17,705 nt of DNA from a virus (lineage: Duplodnaviria > Heunggongvirae > Uroviricota > Caudoviricetes): IMG/VR virus record IMGVR_UViG_2534681773_000018, one strand, 5' to 3'. The notes under the pieces are model-generated. The model was not told the DNA's origin and did no database searches. It saw nothing but the letters and a program-made list of their open reading frames with translations. The translations under genes were made by a program, and so were the position numbers. Positions 7,202-15,753 of the stretch are shown here, piece by piece; position 1 is the first letter of the stretch; every line of letters begins with the position of its first letter.

Positions 7202-7212
7202 GTGGGGTGAAT

Positions 7213-10107
7213 ATGGCAGTAAAGATTTCAGGTGTACTGAAAGACGGCACAGGAAAACCGGTACAGAACTGCACAATCCAGCTGAAAGCAAAACGTAACA
7301 GCACCACGGTGGTGGTGAACACGCTGGCCTCAGAAAATCCGGATGAAGCCGGGCGTTACAGCATGGACGTTGAGTACGGGCAGTACAGCGTTATTCTGTT
7401 GGTGGAGGGATTCCCGCCGTCACATGCCGGGACCATCACCGTGTATGAAGATTCCCGACCCGGTACGCTGAATGATTTTCTCGGTGCCATGACGGAGGAT
7501 GATGCCCGTCCTGAGGCACTGCGCCGTTTTGAACTGATGGTGGAAGAGGTGGCGCGTAACGCGTCCGCGGTGGCACAGAACACGGCAGCCGCGAAGAAGT
7601 CAGCCAGCGATGCCAGCACATCAGCCCGTGAGGCGGCAACCCATGCGACTGATGCTGCAGATTCAGCACGTGCAGCCAGCACGTCAGCCGGACAGGCCGC
7701 TTCGTCGGCTCAGTCAGCGTCTTCCAGCGCAGGAACGGCATCAACAAAGGCCACTGAAGCCTCAAAAAGTGCTGCCGCTGCAGAGTCCTCAAAAAGCGTG
7801 GCAGCTACCAGTGCCGGTGCGGCGAAAACGTCAGAAACGAATGCCGCAGCGTCAGAACAATCAGCCGCCACTTCTGCATCCACCGCGACCACGAAAGCGT
7901 CAGAAGCTGCCACCTCAGCCCGGGATGCGGCGGCCTCAAAAGAGGCAGCGAAATCATCAGAAACGAACGCATCCTTGAGCGCCAGTAGCGCAGCTTCCTC
8001 GGCAACGGCGGCAGGAAATTCCGCGAAGGCGGCAAAAACGTCCGAGACGAACGCCAGGTCTTCTGAGACGGCAGCGGGACAGAGCGCCTCAGCTGCGGCA
8101 GGCTCAAAAACAGCGGCTGCGTCGTCTGCCAGTGCCGCGTCAACAAGTGCCGGGCAGGCCTCAGCCAGTGCCACCGCCGCCGGAAAATCGGCAGAAAGCG
8201 CCGCATCATCCGCTTCAACAGCCACAACGAAGGCTGGCGAAGCCACTGAGCAGGCCACGGCAGCAGCGAGGTCAGCTTCCGCAGCGAAGACATCCGAAAC
8301 GAACGCGAAAGCGTCGGAAACCCGTGCAGAATCCTCAAAAACGGCAGCGGCATCGTCCGCCAGTTCGGCGGCGTCATCGGCATCATCGGCGTCTGCTTCA
8401 AAAGATGAGGCGACCAGACAGGCGTCAGCAGCGAAGGGCAGCGCCACGACGGCATCCACGAAGGCGACAGAGGCTGCTGGTAGTGCGAAGGCAGCAGCTC
8501 AGAGCAAAAGTACGGCGGAATCTGCAGCAACGCGCGCTGAGACAGCGGCAAAACGGGCAGAGGATATTGCATCCGCCGTGGCGCTTGAGGATGCGAGCAC
8601 GACGAAAAAGGGGATAGTACAGCTCAGTAGTGCGACTAACAGCACTTCCGAGTCACTGGCGGCAACGCCAAAGGCAGTAAAAGCAGCCAATGACAATGCT
8701 GAGAAACGTCTGCAGAAAGATCAGAACGGTGCGGATATCCCTGGCAAAGACACCTTTACGAAAAATATTGGTGCCTGCCGTGCCTTCGGTGGGTCAGTAA
8801 GCACAACAACAGGAAACTGGACGACTGCACAGTTTATCGAGTGGCTGGATTCTCAGGGAGCATTTAACCATCCATACTGGATGTGCAAGGGTTCCTGGTC
8901 TTATGGCAATAATAAAATCATTACTGATACTGGCTGCGGTAATATTCATCTCGCCGGAGCTGTCATTGAAGTAATGGGGATAAAGTCAGCGATGACGATC
9001 CGCATTACCACTCCGACCACATCCAGCGGTGGCGGAACAACCAACGCCCAGTTTACCTATATTAATCACGGAACAGATTATTCACCTGGCTGGCGAAGGG
9101 ACTATAACTCCAGAAATAAGCCAACGGCATCAGAGATCGGGGCGCTACCGTCAGGTGGAACAGCAGTATCATCAGTTAATCTGGCTTCAAAAGGTCGGGT
9201 AGCCGCGCTGACAGACAATACGCAGGGGGCAGCAGGTCTTGAGTTATACGAGGTGTATAACAACGGATATCCAACAACGTATGGAAATATCATTCACCTG
9301 AAAGGGATGACAGCCGTTGGCGAAGGTGAGTTACTCATCGGCTGGAGTGGTACAAGCGGTGCTCATGCTCCGGCATTTATTCGTTCACGACGGGATACGA
9401 CCGACGCAAACTGGTCGCCGTGGGCGCAGCTTTACACCTCGGCTCATCCTCCTGCAGAGTTTTATCCAGTCGGTGCACCAATCCCGTGGCCATCAGATAC
9501 CGTTCCGTCTGGTTATGTCCTGATGCAGGGGCAGACTTTTGACAAATCTGCATACCCGAAACTTGCAGCCGCTTATCCGTCAGGCGTGATCCCTGATATG
9601 CGTGGCTGGACGATTAAGGGCAAACCTGCCAGTGGTCGGGCCGTATTGTCTCAGGAACAGGACGGCATTAAATCGCACACCCACAGCGCCAGCGCATCCA
9701 GTACGGATTTGGGGACGAAAACCACATCGTCGTTTGATTACGGCACTAAATCCACGAATAACATCGGGGCGCATACGCACAGTGTGAGCGGTACAGCCGC
9801 AAGTGCCGGAAACCATACTCATAGTGTCACAGGCGCATCAGCAGTCAGCCAGTGGTCACAAAATGGGTCAGTACATAAGGTAGTGTCTGCGGCCAGTGTG
9901 AATACAAGTGCTGCAGGAGCGCACACTCATAGTGTCAGCGGCACAGCTGCATCTGCAGGTGCTCACGCACATACTGTCGGTATTGGTGCTCATACGCACT
10001 CGGTTGCGATTGGCTCACATGGACACACCATCACCGTTAACGCTGCTGGTAACGCGGAAAACACCGTCAAAAACATCGCATTTAACTATATTGTGAGGCT
10101 TGCATGA
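7213..10107 (+). CDS. stf: Side tail fibre protein (lambda Stf-like), about 964 aa from ATG 7213
   Basis: N-terminus [26 protein letters not shown] matches lambda Stf. The ORF track starts at GTG 7207, but ATG 7213 is preceded by a GGGG run and matches the lambda start. Long Ala/Ser/Thr-rich repetitive segment, a Cys/Trp-containing central domain, and a C-terminal region with repeated GAHxH motifs ending [11 protein letters not shown] as in lambda Stf. Confidence 0.9.
7560..8590 (+). repeat. Imperfect tandem coding repeats (Ala/Ser/Thr-rich, recurring AAKTSETNA / SASTATTKA units) inside stf
   Basis: Recurrent nucleotide motifs such as aaaacgtcagaaacgaatgc / aagacatccgaaacgaacgc and the corresponding peptide repeats. 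The region has few stop codons in any frame, which produces many overlapping alternative-frame ORFs in the track. Confidence 0.6.
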
Positions 10108-10394
10108 TTACGCTCATTCTTTCTGCACCAGTAACCGAAATGGCTGAAGCATTTAAGCGGGTATTTGCAAATGCAGATAATGTGAATATTGTCGGAAAGC
10201 CATTTGAAACAATCAGAGAATTTGACTGCATGGTAAGTGCGGCAAATAGTTTCGGCCTGATGGATGGCGGTGTTGATGCCGCCATTACCACATTCTTCGG
10301 TTCTCAGCTACAGGCCCGCGTTCAGAATCATATTCTTCGTGAATATCTCGGCGAGCAGCCTGTAGGTTCTGCATTTGTGATCCTACCCACGTAA
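10104..10394 (+). CDS. Macro-domain-like protein fragment (putative ADP-ribose binding/processing); 3' end truncated by IS3
   Basis: ATG 10104 overlaps the stf stop (ATGA), suggesting translational coupling. Product contains [21 protein letters not shown], resembling the macro-domain signature (VVNAAN...GGGV..AI). Visibly more AT-rich than stf. The frame runs into the IS3 terminal repeat (from 10378) and stops there, so the last few codons are IS-derived. Confidence 0.45.
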
Positions 10395-10407: not shown

Positions 10408-11274
10408 CTAAGCGAGGTTCTGGTTTTCAAATTGTTCCGGACTGAGGCCGCCACACCAACTGTGCCGCCGCCACCGATTGTAATCACATTCGATATAATT
10501 AAACACCGTTGCCCGCATTATTTCCCGGCTGATAAAGTGTTCTCCATGGATACATTCCACTTTCAGCGAATGAAAGAAGCTTTCCACGCAGGCATTATCG
10601 TAGCAGCAACCTTTTGCGCTCATACTTCCACGCAGATTATGCCGCTTCAGTTGCGCCTGATAATCTGCTGAACAGTACTGGCCTCCACGGTCCGTGTGAA
10701 CGATAACGTTCCGGGGCCTCTTACGCCGCCACAGCGCCATCTGCAGGGCATCGCAGGCCAGTTGCGCCGTCATGCGTGGCGACATTGACCAGCCAATAAC
10801 GGCACGTGACCACAGGTCAATGACCACTGCCAGATACAGCCAGCCTTCATCTGTACGTAAGTACGTGATGTCTCCTGCCCACTTCTGGTTCGGGCCACTG
10901 GCGTAAAAATCCTGCTCCAACAGATTTTCTGACACAGGCAGGCCGTGTGCGCGGTAGCTGACCGGGCTGAACTTCCGGGAGGCCTTTGCCCTCAGTCCCT
11001 GACGGCGCAGGCTTGCCGCCACGGTTTTTACGTTAAAGGGGTAACCCTGAGCACGCAGTTCATCCGTCAGGCGTGGGGCACCGTAACGCTGTTTTGACCG
11101 GGTAAAAGCCGCGAGGACAACGCTGTCGCAGTGTTGGCGGAACTGCTGACGCGTGCTTATCCTTGTCCGCCGCTGACACCACGTATACCAGCCGCTGCGG
11201 GCCACCCGGAGCACGCGGCACATTGCTTTGATGCTGAACTCAGCCTGATGTTTTTCAATAAAGACATACTTCAT
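10408..11274 (-). CDS. insF: IS3 transposase OrfB (DDE integrase-like catalytic domain), 288 aa
   Basis: 288-aa ORF beginning [36 protein letters not shown], recognisable as the IS3 OrfB/InsF sequence. ATG 11272-11274 overlaps the orfA stop in the -1 arrangement typical of the IS3 family. Confidence 0.9.
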
Positions 11275-11569
11275 TTCAGGCGCTTCGCGAAGTATGTCGC
11301 GGCCTTTTGGAGGATAGCCAGCTCTTCATCCCGTTCTGCCAGCTGGCGTTTGAGACGTGCAATCTCGGTAGACATCTCCAGTTCACGTTCAGAAGACGTC
11401 TGCTGATTTTGCTGTTTACTGCGCCAGTTGTAGAGCTGTGATTCATACAGGCTGAGTTCACGGGCTGCGGCAGTAACACCGATGCGTTCAGCAAGCTTCA
11501 GGGCTTCACTGCGAAATTCAGGCGAATGCTGTTTACGGGGTTTTTACTGGTTGATACTGTTTTTGTCAT
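11271..11569 (-). pseudogene. insE: IS3 orfA (InsE-like HTH protein); reading frame appears interrupted in this copy
   Basis: ATG at 11567-11569 opens the expected MTKTVSTSK start and the C-terminal segment ([37 protein letters not shown]) is readable in the frame ending at 11271-11273. No intact ORF joins them in the track: the span is 299 nt (not a multiple of 3) and my hand translation hits an early stop after about 20 codons. Base-level details here are uncertain. Confidence 0.5.
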
Positions 11570-11634
11570 GTGAGTCACCTCTGACTGAGAGTTTACTCAC
11601 TTAGCCGCGTGTCCACTATTGCTGGGTAAGATCA

Positions 11635-11857
11635 CCGGGCAGGTCTGTATTAACCCTGAACATCAGGCTGATGATGTACTGATACAACATCAGGCTAATA
11701 ACCGGTTTCGCCCTGGTTCGCATATACACCGGATTAATCCAGAAAATCCTGTAGGTAATGTCATCTCTGGCGCACATAGCCACGGAAGTAGCATCGTTAT
11801 TGGTGCTCACACCCATACGCTCAATAAACAATATTCTGTCTCTGATATTAAGTAGAG
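11635..11857 (+). pseudogene. 3' remnant of a second tail fibre gene (His-rich GAHxH C-terminal repeat region), truncated at the IS3 boundary
   Basis: The frame entering from the IS3 end encodes ...[30 protein letters not shown] and stops 8 nt before the tfa start. It resembles, but is not identical to, the GAHTHSV.../[16 protein letters not shown] repeats at the stf C-terminus. It sits where a fibre gene 3' end is expected, directly upstream of tfa. Confidence 0.45.
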
Positions 11858-11863
11858 GTGAAC

Positions 11864-12439
11864 ATGGATTTCAGAATGAGTGAACAACCACGGACCATAA
11901 CAATTTATAATCTGCTGGCCGGAACTAATGAATTTATTGGTGAAGGTGACGCATACATTCCGCCTCATACAGGTCTGCCAGCAAACAGTACCGATATTGC
12001 ACCGCCAGATATTCCGGCTGGTTTCGTGGCTGTTTTCAACAGTGATGAGTCATCGTGGCATCTCGTTGAAGATCATCGGGGTAAAACGGTTTATGACGTG
12101 GCTTCCGGCGACGCGTTATTTATTTCTGAACTCGGCTCATTACCGGAAAATGTCACCTGGTTATCCCCGGAAGGGGAGTTTCAGAAGTGGAACGGCACAG
12201 CCTGGGTGAAGGATACGGAAGCAGAAAAACTGTTCCGGATCCGGGAGGCGGAAGAAACAAAAAACAGCCTGATGCAGGTAGCCAGTGAGCATATAGCGCC
12301 GCTTCAGGATGCTGTGGATCTGGAGATCGCAACGGAGAAAGAAACCTTGTTGCTGGAAGCCTGGAAAAAGTATCGGGTGTTGCTGAACCGTGTTGATACA
12401 TCAACTGCACCGGATATTGAATGGCCAGCCCTACCGTAG
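11864..12439 (+). CDS. tfa: Tail fibre assembly protein (lambda Tfa-like), about 191 aa from ATG 11864
   Basis: Product [62 protein letters not shown] ... [45 protein letters not shown] closely matches lambda Tfa. GAGGTG ribosome-binding site about 5 nt upstream of ATG 11864 (the ORF track starts at GTG 11858). Confidence 0.9.
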
Positions 12440-12515
12440 GGTAAGATATATAAATTCTATAATTAGAAGTATCTTTCCATTTAAGGCTAGGAAGGGAGGC
12501 TTGGAAAACGTAAGG

Positions 12516-12540
12516 AATCTCACACCGAGATTATTTTTAT
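12516..12540 (+). terminator. Weak hairpin plus T-run between the convergent tfa and invertase genes (possible terminator)
   Basis: aatctc (12516-12521) / gagatt (12527-12532) with loop acacc, followed by atttttat. The stem is short and AT-rich and overlaps the invertase stop codon. Confidence 0.25.
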
Positions 12541-13127
12541 ATATCAGGTGTCTGATTTTTTGCTTTAGCTCTTAAAATGGTTTGCCGCGAGGTTTTGAAT
12601 TCTTGGGCAATGTCACTTATATTTATACCTGACTTAATTTGCTCTAGTACCCTCTGTATTTGTTCATCATTTAACACAGGTGGGCGACCAAATCGCTTTC
12701 CTGCGCCCCGTGCTCTTAATATCCCTGAATGAGTACGCTCAAGTAAAAGGTCTCGCTCAAATTCAGCGACTGCTGAAATTACTTGCATCATCATTTTTCC
12801 AGGTGGACTGGTCAGGTCAACGCCCCCCAATGCTAAGCAATGCACTTTGATACCTGCTTTGGTCAGTTGTTCCACCGTTTTACTGATATCCATTGGATTA
12901 CAACCGAGGCGATCCAGTTTTGTGACAATCAATGCATCACCTCTTTTCAGTCGATCAAGCAACTGGTTAAAACCAGGACGCTCACTGGTTGCTGCTGAGC
13001 CGCTAATTTGTTCTTCAATTATTTGCTGAGATTTGATGTTAAAACCTGCACTTTCGATTTCCCGACGTTGATTTTTGGTTGTCTTTTCCAGAGTTGATAC
13101 CCGACAGTAAGCATAAATTCGAGACAT
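12537..13127 (-). CDS. Serine recombinase, Gin/Hin/Pin/Cin-type DNA invertase (resolvase/invertase family), 196 aa
   Basis: N-terminal catalytic motif YAYCRVST (active-site Ser), conserved [19 protein letters not shown] and GRPP motifs, and a C-terminal HTH-like tail. It aligns along its length with Gin/Hin as I recall them. Located next to tail-fibre/tfa genes, as pin, gin and cin are. Confidence 0.85.
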
Positions 13128-13445
13128 AGTGAGATCTTCTATACGAAATTGGTGTACATATCATAATGCATCTCAGAAAATAATTTTGATTATTTTTGTA
13201 CATATTTGTATGTACACGTTCGAAAATAAACGAATGCGTATGCAACCCCGTAATTTTGGTGAGACCCAAAATCGATTTTGTGAAAAATGGCCTTAACTCG
13301 GTTTGTTTTTCGAGTTCCGGGCGGACTCAAGGAAGAAGAATAGTGTTGCGTGTTATTTTAACCAGATTTCAAGTTGTTTGGTCGTGGAAAAGTGGAGCAA
13401 AATGTTGTTAAAGTGGAAAAATGATAAAAAAGTAAGTTTATTATA

Positions 13446-13712
13446 TTACATTTTACCATTTAAATTTTTGTTGTCTTTAAGAACTGATATCGCTGTTTGT
13501 AATAATTCTTTGTTATCCAGCCATGACTTTTTCTTTATGTTTCCTTCAATGTAATCAAGCAATGTTCTGGTATTGATAGGTCTTCCCTGTTTTGCTACTT
13601 CCACTACAGCATCCCCTAGGATAATTCTTACTTCAGGAAGCTGCGCAGGGAACCACTTTAGGGTGTCTTTTGATTTCATGAAGATATTCCTTAAAATATT
13701 ATTGATTTTCAT
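13446..13712 (-). CDS. Hypothetical small protein (77-88 aa), AT-rich, no recognisable family
   Basis: ORF on the - strand. The second Met (ATG 13677-13679) is preceded by an AAGGAA ribosome-binding site and is the more plausible start. Very AT-rich. I recognise no motif, and coding status is uncertain. Confidence 0.35.
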   Translation of the reverse strand: MKINNILRNIFMKSKDTLKWFPAQLPEVRIILGDAVVEVAKQGRPINTRTLLDYIEGNIKKKSWLDNKELLQTAISVLKDNKNLNGKM

Positions 13713-14180
13713 TGCGATATTGTATGTCTGATTCAGGATATGTTGACTTATACATCGGTTTTGTCTGGGTTATTGGATATGCCAATCCCTAATTTTATTA
13801 GAGCATGACTAAAAATGCTGAATATGATAAGGAGCGAAGTGATTATCAGTATGCTGTTCATATAGCCTCGAATTAGTAATGTGTTATATATGATATAGTT
13901 GACAATTTTTATCCTGGGTGTTCTTAAAGTTCGTAGATAAACATTGTCGTTTCAGGTATACAGGAATGCTAACAGGTGGCGGCAAAAATCAGGCGGTTTA
14001 TGGCGCAAGCTGAAGTGTCAACTGCAAACTATCTTATGCAGAGACTCTACACGGATTGGGTTTAAAAGTATACATAGATAACAGTTTTTATCTGAAGAAG
14101 AAAAATATCAAGGTGATATAGCCTATATGCCTATGATGCGGAGGAATGAATGTGATGGGAGTGATGTATCTGAATAGTTG

Positions 14181-14220
14181 AAAAACCGCAGACACGCCTT
14201 ATGCAAGAACGTGCTGCGGT
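14181..14220 (-). terminator. Rho-independent terminator for the - strand methyltransferase gene
   Basis: Stem ccgcagacacg (14186-14196) / cgtgctgcgg (14210-14219) with one bulge. On the - strand the stem is followed directly by TTTTT (complement of aaaaa 14181-14185), a few nt downstream of the methyltransferase stop. Confidence 0.5.
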
Positions 14221-14226
14221 TGGATG

Positions 14227-14895
14227 CTATTTTTTCCCTGAAGCGGAAAACATTACTACAGTACCTTGAACCTTGGTTTTAACATTCTCGAAATACTCTG
14301 AGAGTATATGTGTTAAGCCTTCTTCGGAATCTTTTGTGTTTGAAAAGATGCCTTTCTGATTGTAAATGCGCATCAGTTTTTGACCGAAGCTATTGTGCAC
14401 AATTCCATCGCCAAGAATTGTGGCTCCGTATAGAGTTCCATCGTCAGTTAAGGCCTGCGCCGCATTGCGTATTACACAGCTTTTTGTAGATATATTTCCA
14501 GGCAGGCAGTGAAGAAGGTAAAACATGGAAATGGAATCAAATTGACCATGTAACGCCGCGGGATAAGGTTCAAAAACATCATGGTTAATTTTATGTTTAA
14601 TTTTTGATTCCCCAGCCCTTGTAGATGCCGCGTTCAGGCTAGCTTCGTTCAAATCCATTAAAGATATCAGACTACTCTCAGGTACGTGAGTAAGGTAAAA
14701 CCCAGTTCCAACACCAATATCCAGATGGTTGTTACCTAAATGTTCCAGAAAGTGTGGAAGAAGGTGTTCCTTTGTAGGACATCCCCATGCAAGCCGATTT
14801 GATACTCCCAAAACCCACCAGTCATAAAGCTTTAGGGTAAGTGGTGTGTAAATTTTAGCCCCATCATCTGTGTTTTTTTTCATTAATTTCACCAT
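14227..14895 (-). CDS. ybcY: Class I SAM-dependent methyltransferase (ybcY-like), 222 aa
   Basis: Contains the glycine-rich SAM-binding motif LDIGVGTGF. Its position between a tfa gene and a tfaX-like remnant upstream of appY-ompT matches the DLP12 gene order as I remember it. The symbol is assigned by synteny and is not verified. Confidence 0.6.
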   Translation of the reverse strand: MVKLMKKNTDDGAKIYTPLTLKLYDWWVLGVSNRLAWGCPTKEHLLPHFLEHLGNNHLDIGVGTGFYLTHVPESSLISLMDLNEASLNAASTRAGESKIKHKINHDVFEPYPAALHGQFDSISMFYLLHCLPGNISTKSCVIRNAAQALTDDGTLYGATILGDGIVHNSFGQKLMRIYNQKGIFSNTKDSEEGLTHILSEYFENVKTKVQGTVVMFSASGKK

Positions 14896-14951
14896 GTTAT
14901 AGTTTTATTTGTGAATTAAATCAATTATGGCAATGAATTACAAGGGGTTAA

Positions 14952-15212
14952 ATGCTGCCGCAGCATAGCGATATTGAAATAGCCTGGTATGCTTCAATAC
15001 AGCAGGAGCCGAATAGCTGGAAGACCGTCACCACACAGTTCTACATCCAGGAATTCAGTGAGTATATTGCGCCACTGCAGGATGCTGTAGATCTGGAAAT
15101 CGCAACGGAGGAAGAAAGATCGTTGCTGGAAGCCTGAAAAAAGTATCGGGTGCTGCTAAACCGTGTGGACACTTCCGTAGCACCAGATATCGAGTGGCTT
15201 ATTCAACCATAA
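14952..15212 (+). pseudogene. tfaX: Tail fibre assembly gene remnant (tfaX-like): tfa C-terminal homology interrupted by an in-frame stop
   Basis: A 61-aa ORF ends at TGA 15135-15137 in the context EAWKKY (TGG to TGA relative to the intact tfa at 12360). The same frame continues [24 protein letters not shown] to TAA 15210-15212. The 3' roughly 140 nt is a diverged direct repeat of the tfa 3' end (12291-12431). Confidence 0.65.
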
Positions 15213-15753
15213 TAAACAGTATGTATATCATAGGTTATTAATTGTGAGTTTTTTCGGTGTGTTATTTGTTTGATGTTATGCTTTTGCGCCCCAAAAGGTT
15301 GTTTAGATGTATTTTATCAATTGATTTTCAATATCGTTTAATAAAGAAAAATTAAGCAAGCTGGATGTTGGTTTTTTGTTAATTGAATGGTTCTAATAAT
15401 GTTTTTTTACTGTTGTTGAATGTGACTTGATAAGAAATGCAAGTAAAAATGATACTCTTTTTATTTTAAATTCAAACGGTTGACATATATATAGCAAGAG
15501 GTTTCAGGTGCGTTGTAGTGAGTTTATGTTAATAAAAAGTATAGTAAGCGTTGAAAAATGTAACTTTGAAATACGTTAGAATAAAAAACAATATACATAT
15601 AATAATTTAATCTTAAATGAAATTTATTAAAATTTGCAAACTATAATTTTGTGTATAAAAATATAAATGCACATCATCCTGATTATGATTGTGTATTTAA
15701 TTGGTTGTTATTTGACTGCTATCAACTTGTTTTAATTTTATGATAGGTGCAAG

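Follow-up and report, generated by a model that had tools for sequence, protein, structure and literature searches.

What is the function of the repeats that crowd the spacer upstream of a small serine recombinase gene in a lambdoid prophage of Escherichia coli? The stretch concerned, IMG/VR record IMGVR_UViG_2534681773_000018 (17,705 bp, here called the window), contains a Rac/Qin-type module with an intergenic spacer between ydfK and pin, and within this spacer (34% GC) lie three copies of TGTACA (13153-13158, 13197-13202 and 13211-13216) and a perfect 14-bp palindrome, CAAAATCGATTTTG (13267-13280), all at the positions given in the original prediction; an overlapping inverted repeat, TTTTGG-N6-CCAAAA, is also present, with its arms at 13254-13259 and 13266-13271, one base off the range given there. 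The part of the spacer nearest the recombinase gene (13128-13242) is homologous to the res sites that lie between tnpR and tnpA in Tn3-family transposons: it has their architecture, lacks a partner site in the window and is eroded at sites II and I. It is probably the res relic of a Tn3-family module in Rac/Qin-type phages, which would now act mainly as a promoter and autoregulatory operator and not as an active crossover site. The earlier suggestion of recombination or operator sites thus holds for the TGTACA stretch, through its res homology and predicted promoter, and is not supported for the palindrome as a crossover site.

The homology appears in a sensitive blastn search with the spacer, whose first 82 bases (13128-13209) match about 199 places on plasmids at ~83% identity (E 1e-13). 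In the E. coli plasmid p2RM9088, the matching stretch is flanked on one side by a recombinase gene of 80% identity and on the other by a Tn3-family transposase gene in divergent orientation; the same layout is seen in pEC-IMP from Enterobacter (transposase NF033527, 1200 bits), in other enterobacterial plasmids, in Providencia, and three times, each time with other flanks, in a single Shewanella baltica genome. The orientation differs in a Vibrio version, where the transposase gene is co-directional rather than divergent. An alignment of eight of these tnpR-tnpA spacers yields the layout of the site: all eight carry six 12-bp motifs of the form TGTMCGAAA (TGTMCGAAAnnn) in a fixed arrangement, with TGTACG and TGTACA also among the variants. 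Site III, which adjoins tnpR, consists of two directly repeated half-sites, III-a and III-b, 13 bp apart; site II is formed by the inverted half-sites II-L and II-R and spans 32 bp; site I, which adjoins tnpA, is inverted, spans 26 bp, reads TGTACGAAACCG-AC-CGGTTTCGGTCA, and has halves that score 12.9-16.5 bits. Classical res sites are likewise found upstream of tnpR, with site III nearest to it and the crossover in site I (PMC7157771), and each res is described as having three dimer-binding sites (PMC2602789). A natural hybrid shows that crossover in this transposon family takes place in site I: over tnpR, sites III and II, and the left half of site I, the sequences of pEC-IMP and pHNTS45-1 agree completely (100% identity), and past the middle of site I their identity drops to ~75%, with pHNTS45-1 following an element of Klebsiella quasipneumoniae. 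Viewed by itself, this pair represents a clean res-by-res exchange of modules at site I, in a Tn3-family group that is apparently unnamed.

Placed against these eight transposon sites, the window has a positional homologue of every subsite:

12537-13127, - strand: small serine recombinase gene (196 amino acids; Pfam Resolvase and HTH_7), a divergent pinR/pinQ allele

13140-13164, + strand: homologue of res site III, by positional alignment with the eight transposon res sites

13140-13151: half-site III-a, TATACGAAATTG, 13.8 bits, the highest res-type score in the window

13153-13164: half-site III-b, TGTACATATCAT, 6.6 bits, as in the p2RM9088 and Providencia elements; contains the first TGTACA

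13171-13202: homologue of res site II, 32 bp, the same span as in the transposons

13171-13182: half-site II-L, TCTCAGAAAATA, 2.9 bits

13191-13202, - strand: half-site II-R, TGTACAAAAATA, 12.3 bits; contains the second TGTACA

13217-13242: eroded homologue of res site I, 26 bp, centre AA at 13229-13230; the same span as transposon site I

13217-13228: half-site I-L, CGTTCGAAAATA, 7.7 bits

13231-13242, - strand: half-site I-R, CATACGCATTCG, 3.7 bits

Starting at a distance of 13 bp from the recombinase start codon, the array runs outward in the order III, II, I, with the half-sites of site III directly repeated, those of site II inverted, and II-R separated from site I by the 14 bp also found in the transposons; all six half-sites stand at the transposon spacings, and three of the six are weak. 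The stretch 13128-13242 holds six res-type half-sites of at least 6 bits, with 0.58 to be expected; as many as six are seen in 0 of 5000 shuffles, and no other cluster in the window is as dense. Over the res stretch, 81 of 115 bases are identical to p2RM9088, and the identity declines with distance from the gene: 34/37 in the 5' untranslated region and site III (92%), 22/32 in site II, 11/26 in site I, and 9/30 beyond. Compared with the transposons in general, site I retains 11-14 of its 26 bases, and past 13242 identity is at background level. By this positional alignment, the first two TGTACA copies supply the outer hexamer of III-b and that of II-R, respectively; the third falls into the spacer between sites II and I.

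Considered simply as repeats, these motifs are moderately unusual and not extreme. TGTACA occurs three times in the entire window, each time inside the same 64 bp of the spacer, and no perfect palindrome in the window is longer than CAAAATCGATTTTG, nor does any other reach 14 bp; when the intergenic region (34% GC) was shuffled 2000 times with a first-order Markov model, however, some palindromic hexamer was found at least three times within 70 bp in 43 cases (2.2%) and a perfect palindrome of at least 14 bp in 72 (3.6%). The triple TGTACA is moreover peculiar to the haplotype of the window, being polymorphic at 13156 (A/T), 13199 (T/C), 13200 (A/G) and 13215 (C/T): the three hexamers read TGTTCA, TGTGCA and TGTACA in the Rac prophage of K-12, and TGTACA, TGCACA and TGTATA in GmM066, which represents the second common haplotype. 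The two main spacer haplotypes (K-12-type and GmM066/CFT073-type) are ~12% different and are further distinguished by a 60-bp indel near ydfK; the point at which they switch lies inside 13127-13156, at the conserved site III. The palindrome is retained in K-12-type alleles, matches at 13 of 14 bases in GmM066 and CFT073, and is again palindromic in its phage PhiR63_1 version, AAAAATCGATTTTT. A comparison of 12 prophage and phage alleles shows no variation in half-site III-a.

The third TGTACA, which is no part of a half-site, is the predicted -35 element of the recombinase gene, both by a consensus scan and by the hexamers of a published promoter list:

13189-13216, - strand: predicted sigma-70 promoter, with -35 TGTACA at 13216-13211, a 16-nt spacer, and -10 AATAAT at 13194-13189

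13160-13165, - strand: TATGAT, candidate second -10 element of the recombinase gene, homologous by alignment to the TATAAT of the transposons

The promoter matches the consensus at 9 of 12 positions and overlaps both II-R and the DNA that separates site II from site I. Genomic SELEX (systematic evolution of ligands by exponential enrichment) located binding sites of the RpoD holoenzyme in two K-12 spacers, ynaE-pinR and ydfK-pinQ, and the promoter listed for both is TGTACA-16-AATAAT (PMC3946193): the same hexamers in the same place, in a spacer 97.8% identical to that of the window. A sigma-70 promoter is accordingly predicted for the recombinase gene of the window, with RNA polymerase binding taken over from the homologous K-12 spacer, on which it was measured; the K-12 study draws no link to a res site (PMC3946193). 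A perfect TATAAT stands between III-b and II-L in the transposons; its counterpart in the window, TATGAT, may be a second -10 element. The pin transcript is predicted to start near 13182 and/or 13153.

The recombinase itself belongs, to judge by its sequence, to a clade of Tn3-family TnpR resolvases. It is 85% identical in amino acids to PinR of K-12, 80% to TnpR of p2RM9088, and 73-83% to the transposon TnpR resolvases overall; homologues of 73-78% identity adjoin Tn3-family transposases in Shewanella, Providencia and Vibrio. By its relationships it is not a Din-family invertase: the protein is about equally similar to Gin (E 7e-27) and to gamma-delta resolvase (E 2e-22), and it shares only 38-40% identity with PinE and Gin, the value for PinE being 38% (PMC12529663). 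More than 7800 proteins match it at E <=1e-40, many of them plasmid-borne, and it would seem that the family is large, with most members on transposons and plasmids and a small share in prophages, a judgement made on the list of matches rather than on a tree; a protein search of genome contigs returned only close Escherichia relatives and no added diversity. Some 150 complete genomes contain the allele of the window at >=99% DNA identity; relative to pinR, 61 of its 591 bases are changed. One of its changes places a lysine at position 15 (codon 13083-13085, - strand), occupied by glutamine in PinR, in PinQ and in every transposon relative (VSTLEK versus VSTLEQ/VSTLDQ). This position corresponds to Q14 of Tn3 resolvase, in which Q14K abolishes resolution in vivo and reduces cleavage to 0.016 of the parent (~1.6%), with binding and synapsis intact (PMC2794168).

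These observations can be joined into the following sequence of events. A Tn3-family resolution module, tnpR together with res, would have become part of Rac/Qin-type lambdoid phages, and its array would have kept the ancestral order, with site III by the gene, then II, then I. The third TGTACA would serve as the -35 element of the recombinase promoter, and the recombinase would repress its own transcription, chiefly at the well-kept site III, which lies at the start of the transcript; the res site would no longer be an efficient place of crossover. The operator role is modelled on Tn3 and gamma-delta, whose resolvases are autoregulated. That the site is probably not active in crossover follows from the lack of a transposase and of a second res, the erosion of sites II and I, the location of the mosaic breakpoints elsewhere, and the lysine at position 15. 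No second res-type cluster was found in the window, either by a scan of cluster density or by a scan for paired half-sites at 24-36 bp, a repeat search for a direct or inverted partner gave nothing above chance level, and blastn finds a single copy in one genome carrying the window allele; since a partner would appear only in a dimer or cointegrate, the lack of a second res is not disqualifying by itself. Searches of the window for transposase remnants, by tblastn with TnpA and by blastn with tnpA DNA, found none. Neither a competent site I with a second res in direct repeat nor a transposase with terminal inverted repeats, as expected of a Tn3-family res in its transposon, is present, and the module is found in the lambdoid b region.

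The likeness to known res sites is nevertheless extensive. As in the Tn3 and gamma-delta (Tn1000) paradigm, the array immediately precedes a small serine recombinase gene, has three subsites of which III is nearest, is built from six 12-bp half-sites of one motif, and has the recombinase promoter embedded in it; with its closest relatives (p2RM9088, pEC-IMP, Shewanella baltica and Providencia) it further shares the spans of 26 bp for site I and 32 bp for site II, the spacings, and ~115 bp of DNA homology. It differs from them in the missing transposase, terminal inverted repeats and second res, and in the eroded sites II and I. The distance between the centres of sites I and II is 43 bp here; in gamma-delta it is 53 bp. 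Site III of Tn3 is symmetric between its two motifs, whereas that of the window consists of direct repeats, an arrangement known from site II of Sin (PMC9943657).

Several points weigh against a res relic that still works as promoter and operator. The half-sites III-b (6.6 bits), II-L (2.9 bits) and I-R (3.7 bits) score low and the stretch contains polymorphic positions; binding of the recombinase at sites II and I may already be lost, and autoregulation is proposed by analogy with Tn3 and gamma-delta. The predicted promoter hexamers were picked by sequence within the SELEX peak, and promoter-like sites in this AT-rich spacer occur at chance level (8 found, 6.8 expected). The ratio of nonsynonymous to synonymous substitution rates (dN/dS) between the window allele and pinR is 0.35, compared with 0.08-0.20 in other comparisons among these genes, which is compatible with partly relaxed selection on the whole module. 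Finally, the res explanation leaves the palindromes unexplained, and if PinQ and PinR act directly at the pix sites of prophage e14 (see below), their specificity is broader than the res motif.

The res site could, alternatively, be fully functional, either in the resolution of phage-genome dimers or in res-by-res exchange among the Rac, Qin and DLP12-site prophages. All three subsites are at their ancestral spacing; phage-type alleles (GmM066, PhiR63_1) have CATCCGAATTTG as I-R, which scores 8.3 bits and is nearer to the family motif; many E. coli genomes contain 2-3 copies of the locus; and PinR is 99-100% conserved across prophages and viable phages despite the ~12% difference of the intergenic DNA, being 100% identical in K-12 Rac, GmM066, and the phages Tritos and PhiR63_1, where the gene differs at 3-4 of 591 bases. 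This reading is nonetheless unlikely, as the halves of site I score 3.7-8.3 bits in comparison with at least 13 in the transposons, the centre and inner bases of the site have diverged, and the window allele carries the equivalent of Q14K. The prophage mosaic breakpoints, too, fall at 13127-13156 and not at the centre of site I (13229/30), unlike the clean hybrid seen in the transposons; an origin of these breakpoints by site I crossover was considered and rejected, as the divergent block specific to the window ends at 13137 and the haplotype boundary lies in 13127-13156.

Improbable as well is a dead relic to which no recombinase binds, an AT-rich, H-NS-bound spacer with a constitutive promoter, whose repeats are without function. 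Such a state would agree with the 34% GC content, with the H-NS mark and the constitutive RpoD site listed for the ydfK-pinQ spacer (PMC3946193), with the polymorphism of the TGTACA hexamers and the eroded half-site scores, and with the frequent damage in cryptic-prophage copies (an IS1 element in pin in strain E272, frameshifts in strain P276M). It accords poorly with III-a, invariant across the alleles and still the strongest half-site in the window, and with the 92% identity to the transposon that the 5' untranslated region and site III have kept despite drift elsewhere.

The palindromes lie beyond the res homology, towards ydfK:

13254-13280: overlapping palindromes TTTTGG-N6-CCAAAA and CAAAATCGATTTTG

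13283-13316, - strand: weak terminator-like element 3' of ydfK, with the stem AACTCG/CGAGTT at 13295-13300 and 13311-13316, then ATTTTT at 13288-13283

13446-13679, - strand: ydfK/ynaE-type cold-shock gene (RefSeq annotation of an essentially identical locus), the far border of the intergenic spacer

The halves of the 14-bp palindrome score -11.5 and -4.6 bits on the res matrix, and by their sequence the palindromes are not part of res. The outermost base pair changes across alleles from C..G to C..T to A..T, which includes one compensatory-looking change. When the - strand of 13235-13350 is folded as RNA, the TTTTGG/CCAAAA hairpin is part of the minimum-energy structure, with a z-score of -1.15 that is not significant. 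On the ydfK-sense strand, the palindromes come after the terminator-like hairpin and its AUUUUU run (13316-13283); a terminator scan reported nothing, the element escaping it because its loop measures 10 nt. The ydfK transcript is predicted to end near 13283. The palindromes always accompany the pin-ydfK junction. In Salmonella phage 118970_sal3 (2237-2926 of the extracted stretch), tfa is followed by ydfK and ynaM in opposite orientation, without a recombinase gene; homology to the window begins only at ~13437 and the palindromes are absent, so that 13243-13436 is specific to the pin-ydfK junction. A palindrome segment travelling with ydfK was rejected for the same reason, this phage having ydfK without 13243-13436. 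Relative to 118970_sal3, the pin gene, the res site and the ~195 bp of 13243-13436 constitute an insert. Our best guess is that the palindromes act in RNA, as a hairpin close to where the ydfK transcript ends, or are a factor site.

The palindrome had been compared, in the original prediction, to the half-sites of gix, hix and cix. A crossover site of this Din type, formed by CCCAAAATC and GATTTTGTG and flipping a neighbouring segment such as the tail-fibre genes, would suit its symmetry, its AT-tracts, its place upstream of a gene annotated as invertase, and its right half, TTTTCACAAAAT, which equals the outer half of pixR at 9 of 12 bases. On a half-site matrix built from gixL and gixR (Mu), pixL and pixR (e14), cixL (P1), and two hix half-sites, however, the genuine sites gixL, pixL, pixR and cixL score 27.5-30.8 bits, and the site centred on the palindrome (13261-13286) scores -2.2 bits, does not match TTMTCNNAAACC, and ranks 97th in the window, being equalled or bettered in 2952 of 3000 shuffled spacers (98%). 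Scanning the window in both directions with this matrix found no Din-type site (best score 8.4 bits), and the inverted partner to be expected was found in the window neither by repeat search nor by matrix scan. The tail-fibre region has one tfa gene in one orientation, related functional phages carrying the module show no invertible layout, and the recombinase is as near to resolvases as to Gin; in a BLAST survey, inversions were found only in e14 and none in Rac or Qin (PMC12529663), which also speaks against such a site. The premise that these crossover sites lie just upstream of the invertase gene is correct for Mu and e14; in P1, cixL overlaps the 3' end of cin (7212-7242 of the extracted stretch), and the position of a site relative to the gene is therefore no reliable guide. 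Din-family sites and the res site of the window have in common that they are targets of small serine recombinases, and site I of the transposon family is also a 26-bp site (12+2+12) with an A-tract and then CC near the centre; yet the two do not match each other (Din sites reach <=7.6 bits on the res matrix), and the window has neither inverted partner nor invertible segment. A Din-type crossover site at the palindrome is highly improbable and close to refuted.

The wider setting is a lambdoid prophage that occupies the DLP12 position in E. coli and has tail genes on board:

7207-10107: stf tail-fibre gene

11858-12439, + strand: tfa

Between these two, a macro-domain gene 3' of stf is split into halves (10104-10394 and 11619-11855) by an IS3-family element, whose transposase open reading frames (10408-11274 and 11276-11494) are both on the - strand. 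The ydfK gene is upstream of the recombinase gene and co-directional with it; past ydfK follow a small ynaM/ynfT open reading frame, a methyltransferase gene, a tfa remnant, appY and ompT. Loci of the pinR/pinQ type occur in 2808 of 5426 complete E. coli genomes, about half, and the viable lambdoid phages Tritos, mEp460 and 2H10 have the same module in the b region, flanked by the tail-fibre genes on one side and int on the other. In an Rfam search of 12000-15500 (E up to 1), nothing was found in 13128-13445; the sole matches are IS009-like, at 12207-12405 (+ strand, 218 bits) and 14975-15178 (+ strand, 109 bits), and represent the 3' ends of tfa and of the tfa remnant. These direct repeats of the tfa 3' end bracket pin, ydfK, ynaM and the methyltransferase gene. 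The DLP12 prophage of K-12 presumably has the gene order tfaD-ybcY-tfaX, without pin and ydfK, a difference for which deletion or insertion between the tfa-end repeats may account. A Fur cluster has been predicted at the start codon of ydfK/ynaE, outside the repeat region of the spacer (PMC2189734).

The pinR and pinQ genes are annotated as DNA invertases, and a 2025 paper gives them a role in phage defence via inversion of e14 DNA. PinQ and PinR were reported to promote inversion of the e14 P segment at the pix sites, with no inversion found next to pinQ or pinR, no mention of a res site, and the P segment locked in a pinE mutant (PMC12529663). As the res half-site matrix, which describes PinQ's own family, gives the pix sites <=3.1 bits and the pinE mutant is locked, a direct action of PinQ at pix is not obvious from sequence. 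A bolder view, which we hold to be doubtful, is that the PinR and PinQ "invertases" of Rac/Qin-like lambdoid prophages are resolvases of the Tn3 family that have been domesticated but retain a full res with all three subsites, and whose native reaction is not inversion but resolution or deletion between directly repeated res sites, under a topological filter; if this were true, they could resolve phage-genome dimers or exchange co-resident prophages res by res, and the PinQ-dependent inversion of the e14 P segment would be indirect, or off-target at sites unlike its own. The feature described here is a transposon-derived res site upstream of a prophage pin gene, res sites themselves being a known class. 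It explains the motif cluster without a new inversion system, offers III-a and II-R as concrete candidate binding sites, and argues, in annotation, against a "gix-like site" for the region and against the default name "invertase" for the gene; together with the resolvase kinship, it changes both the reaction and the DNA target to be expected of the pinR and pinQ products.

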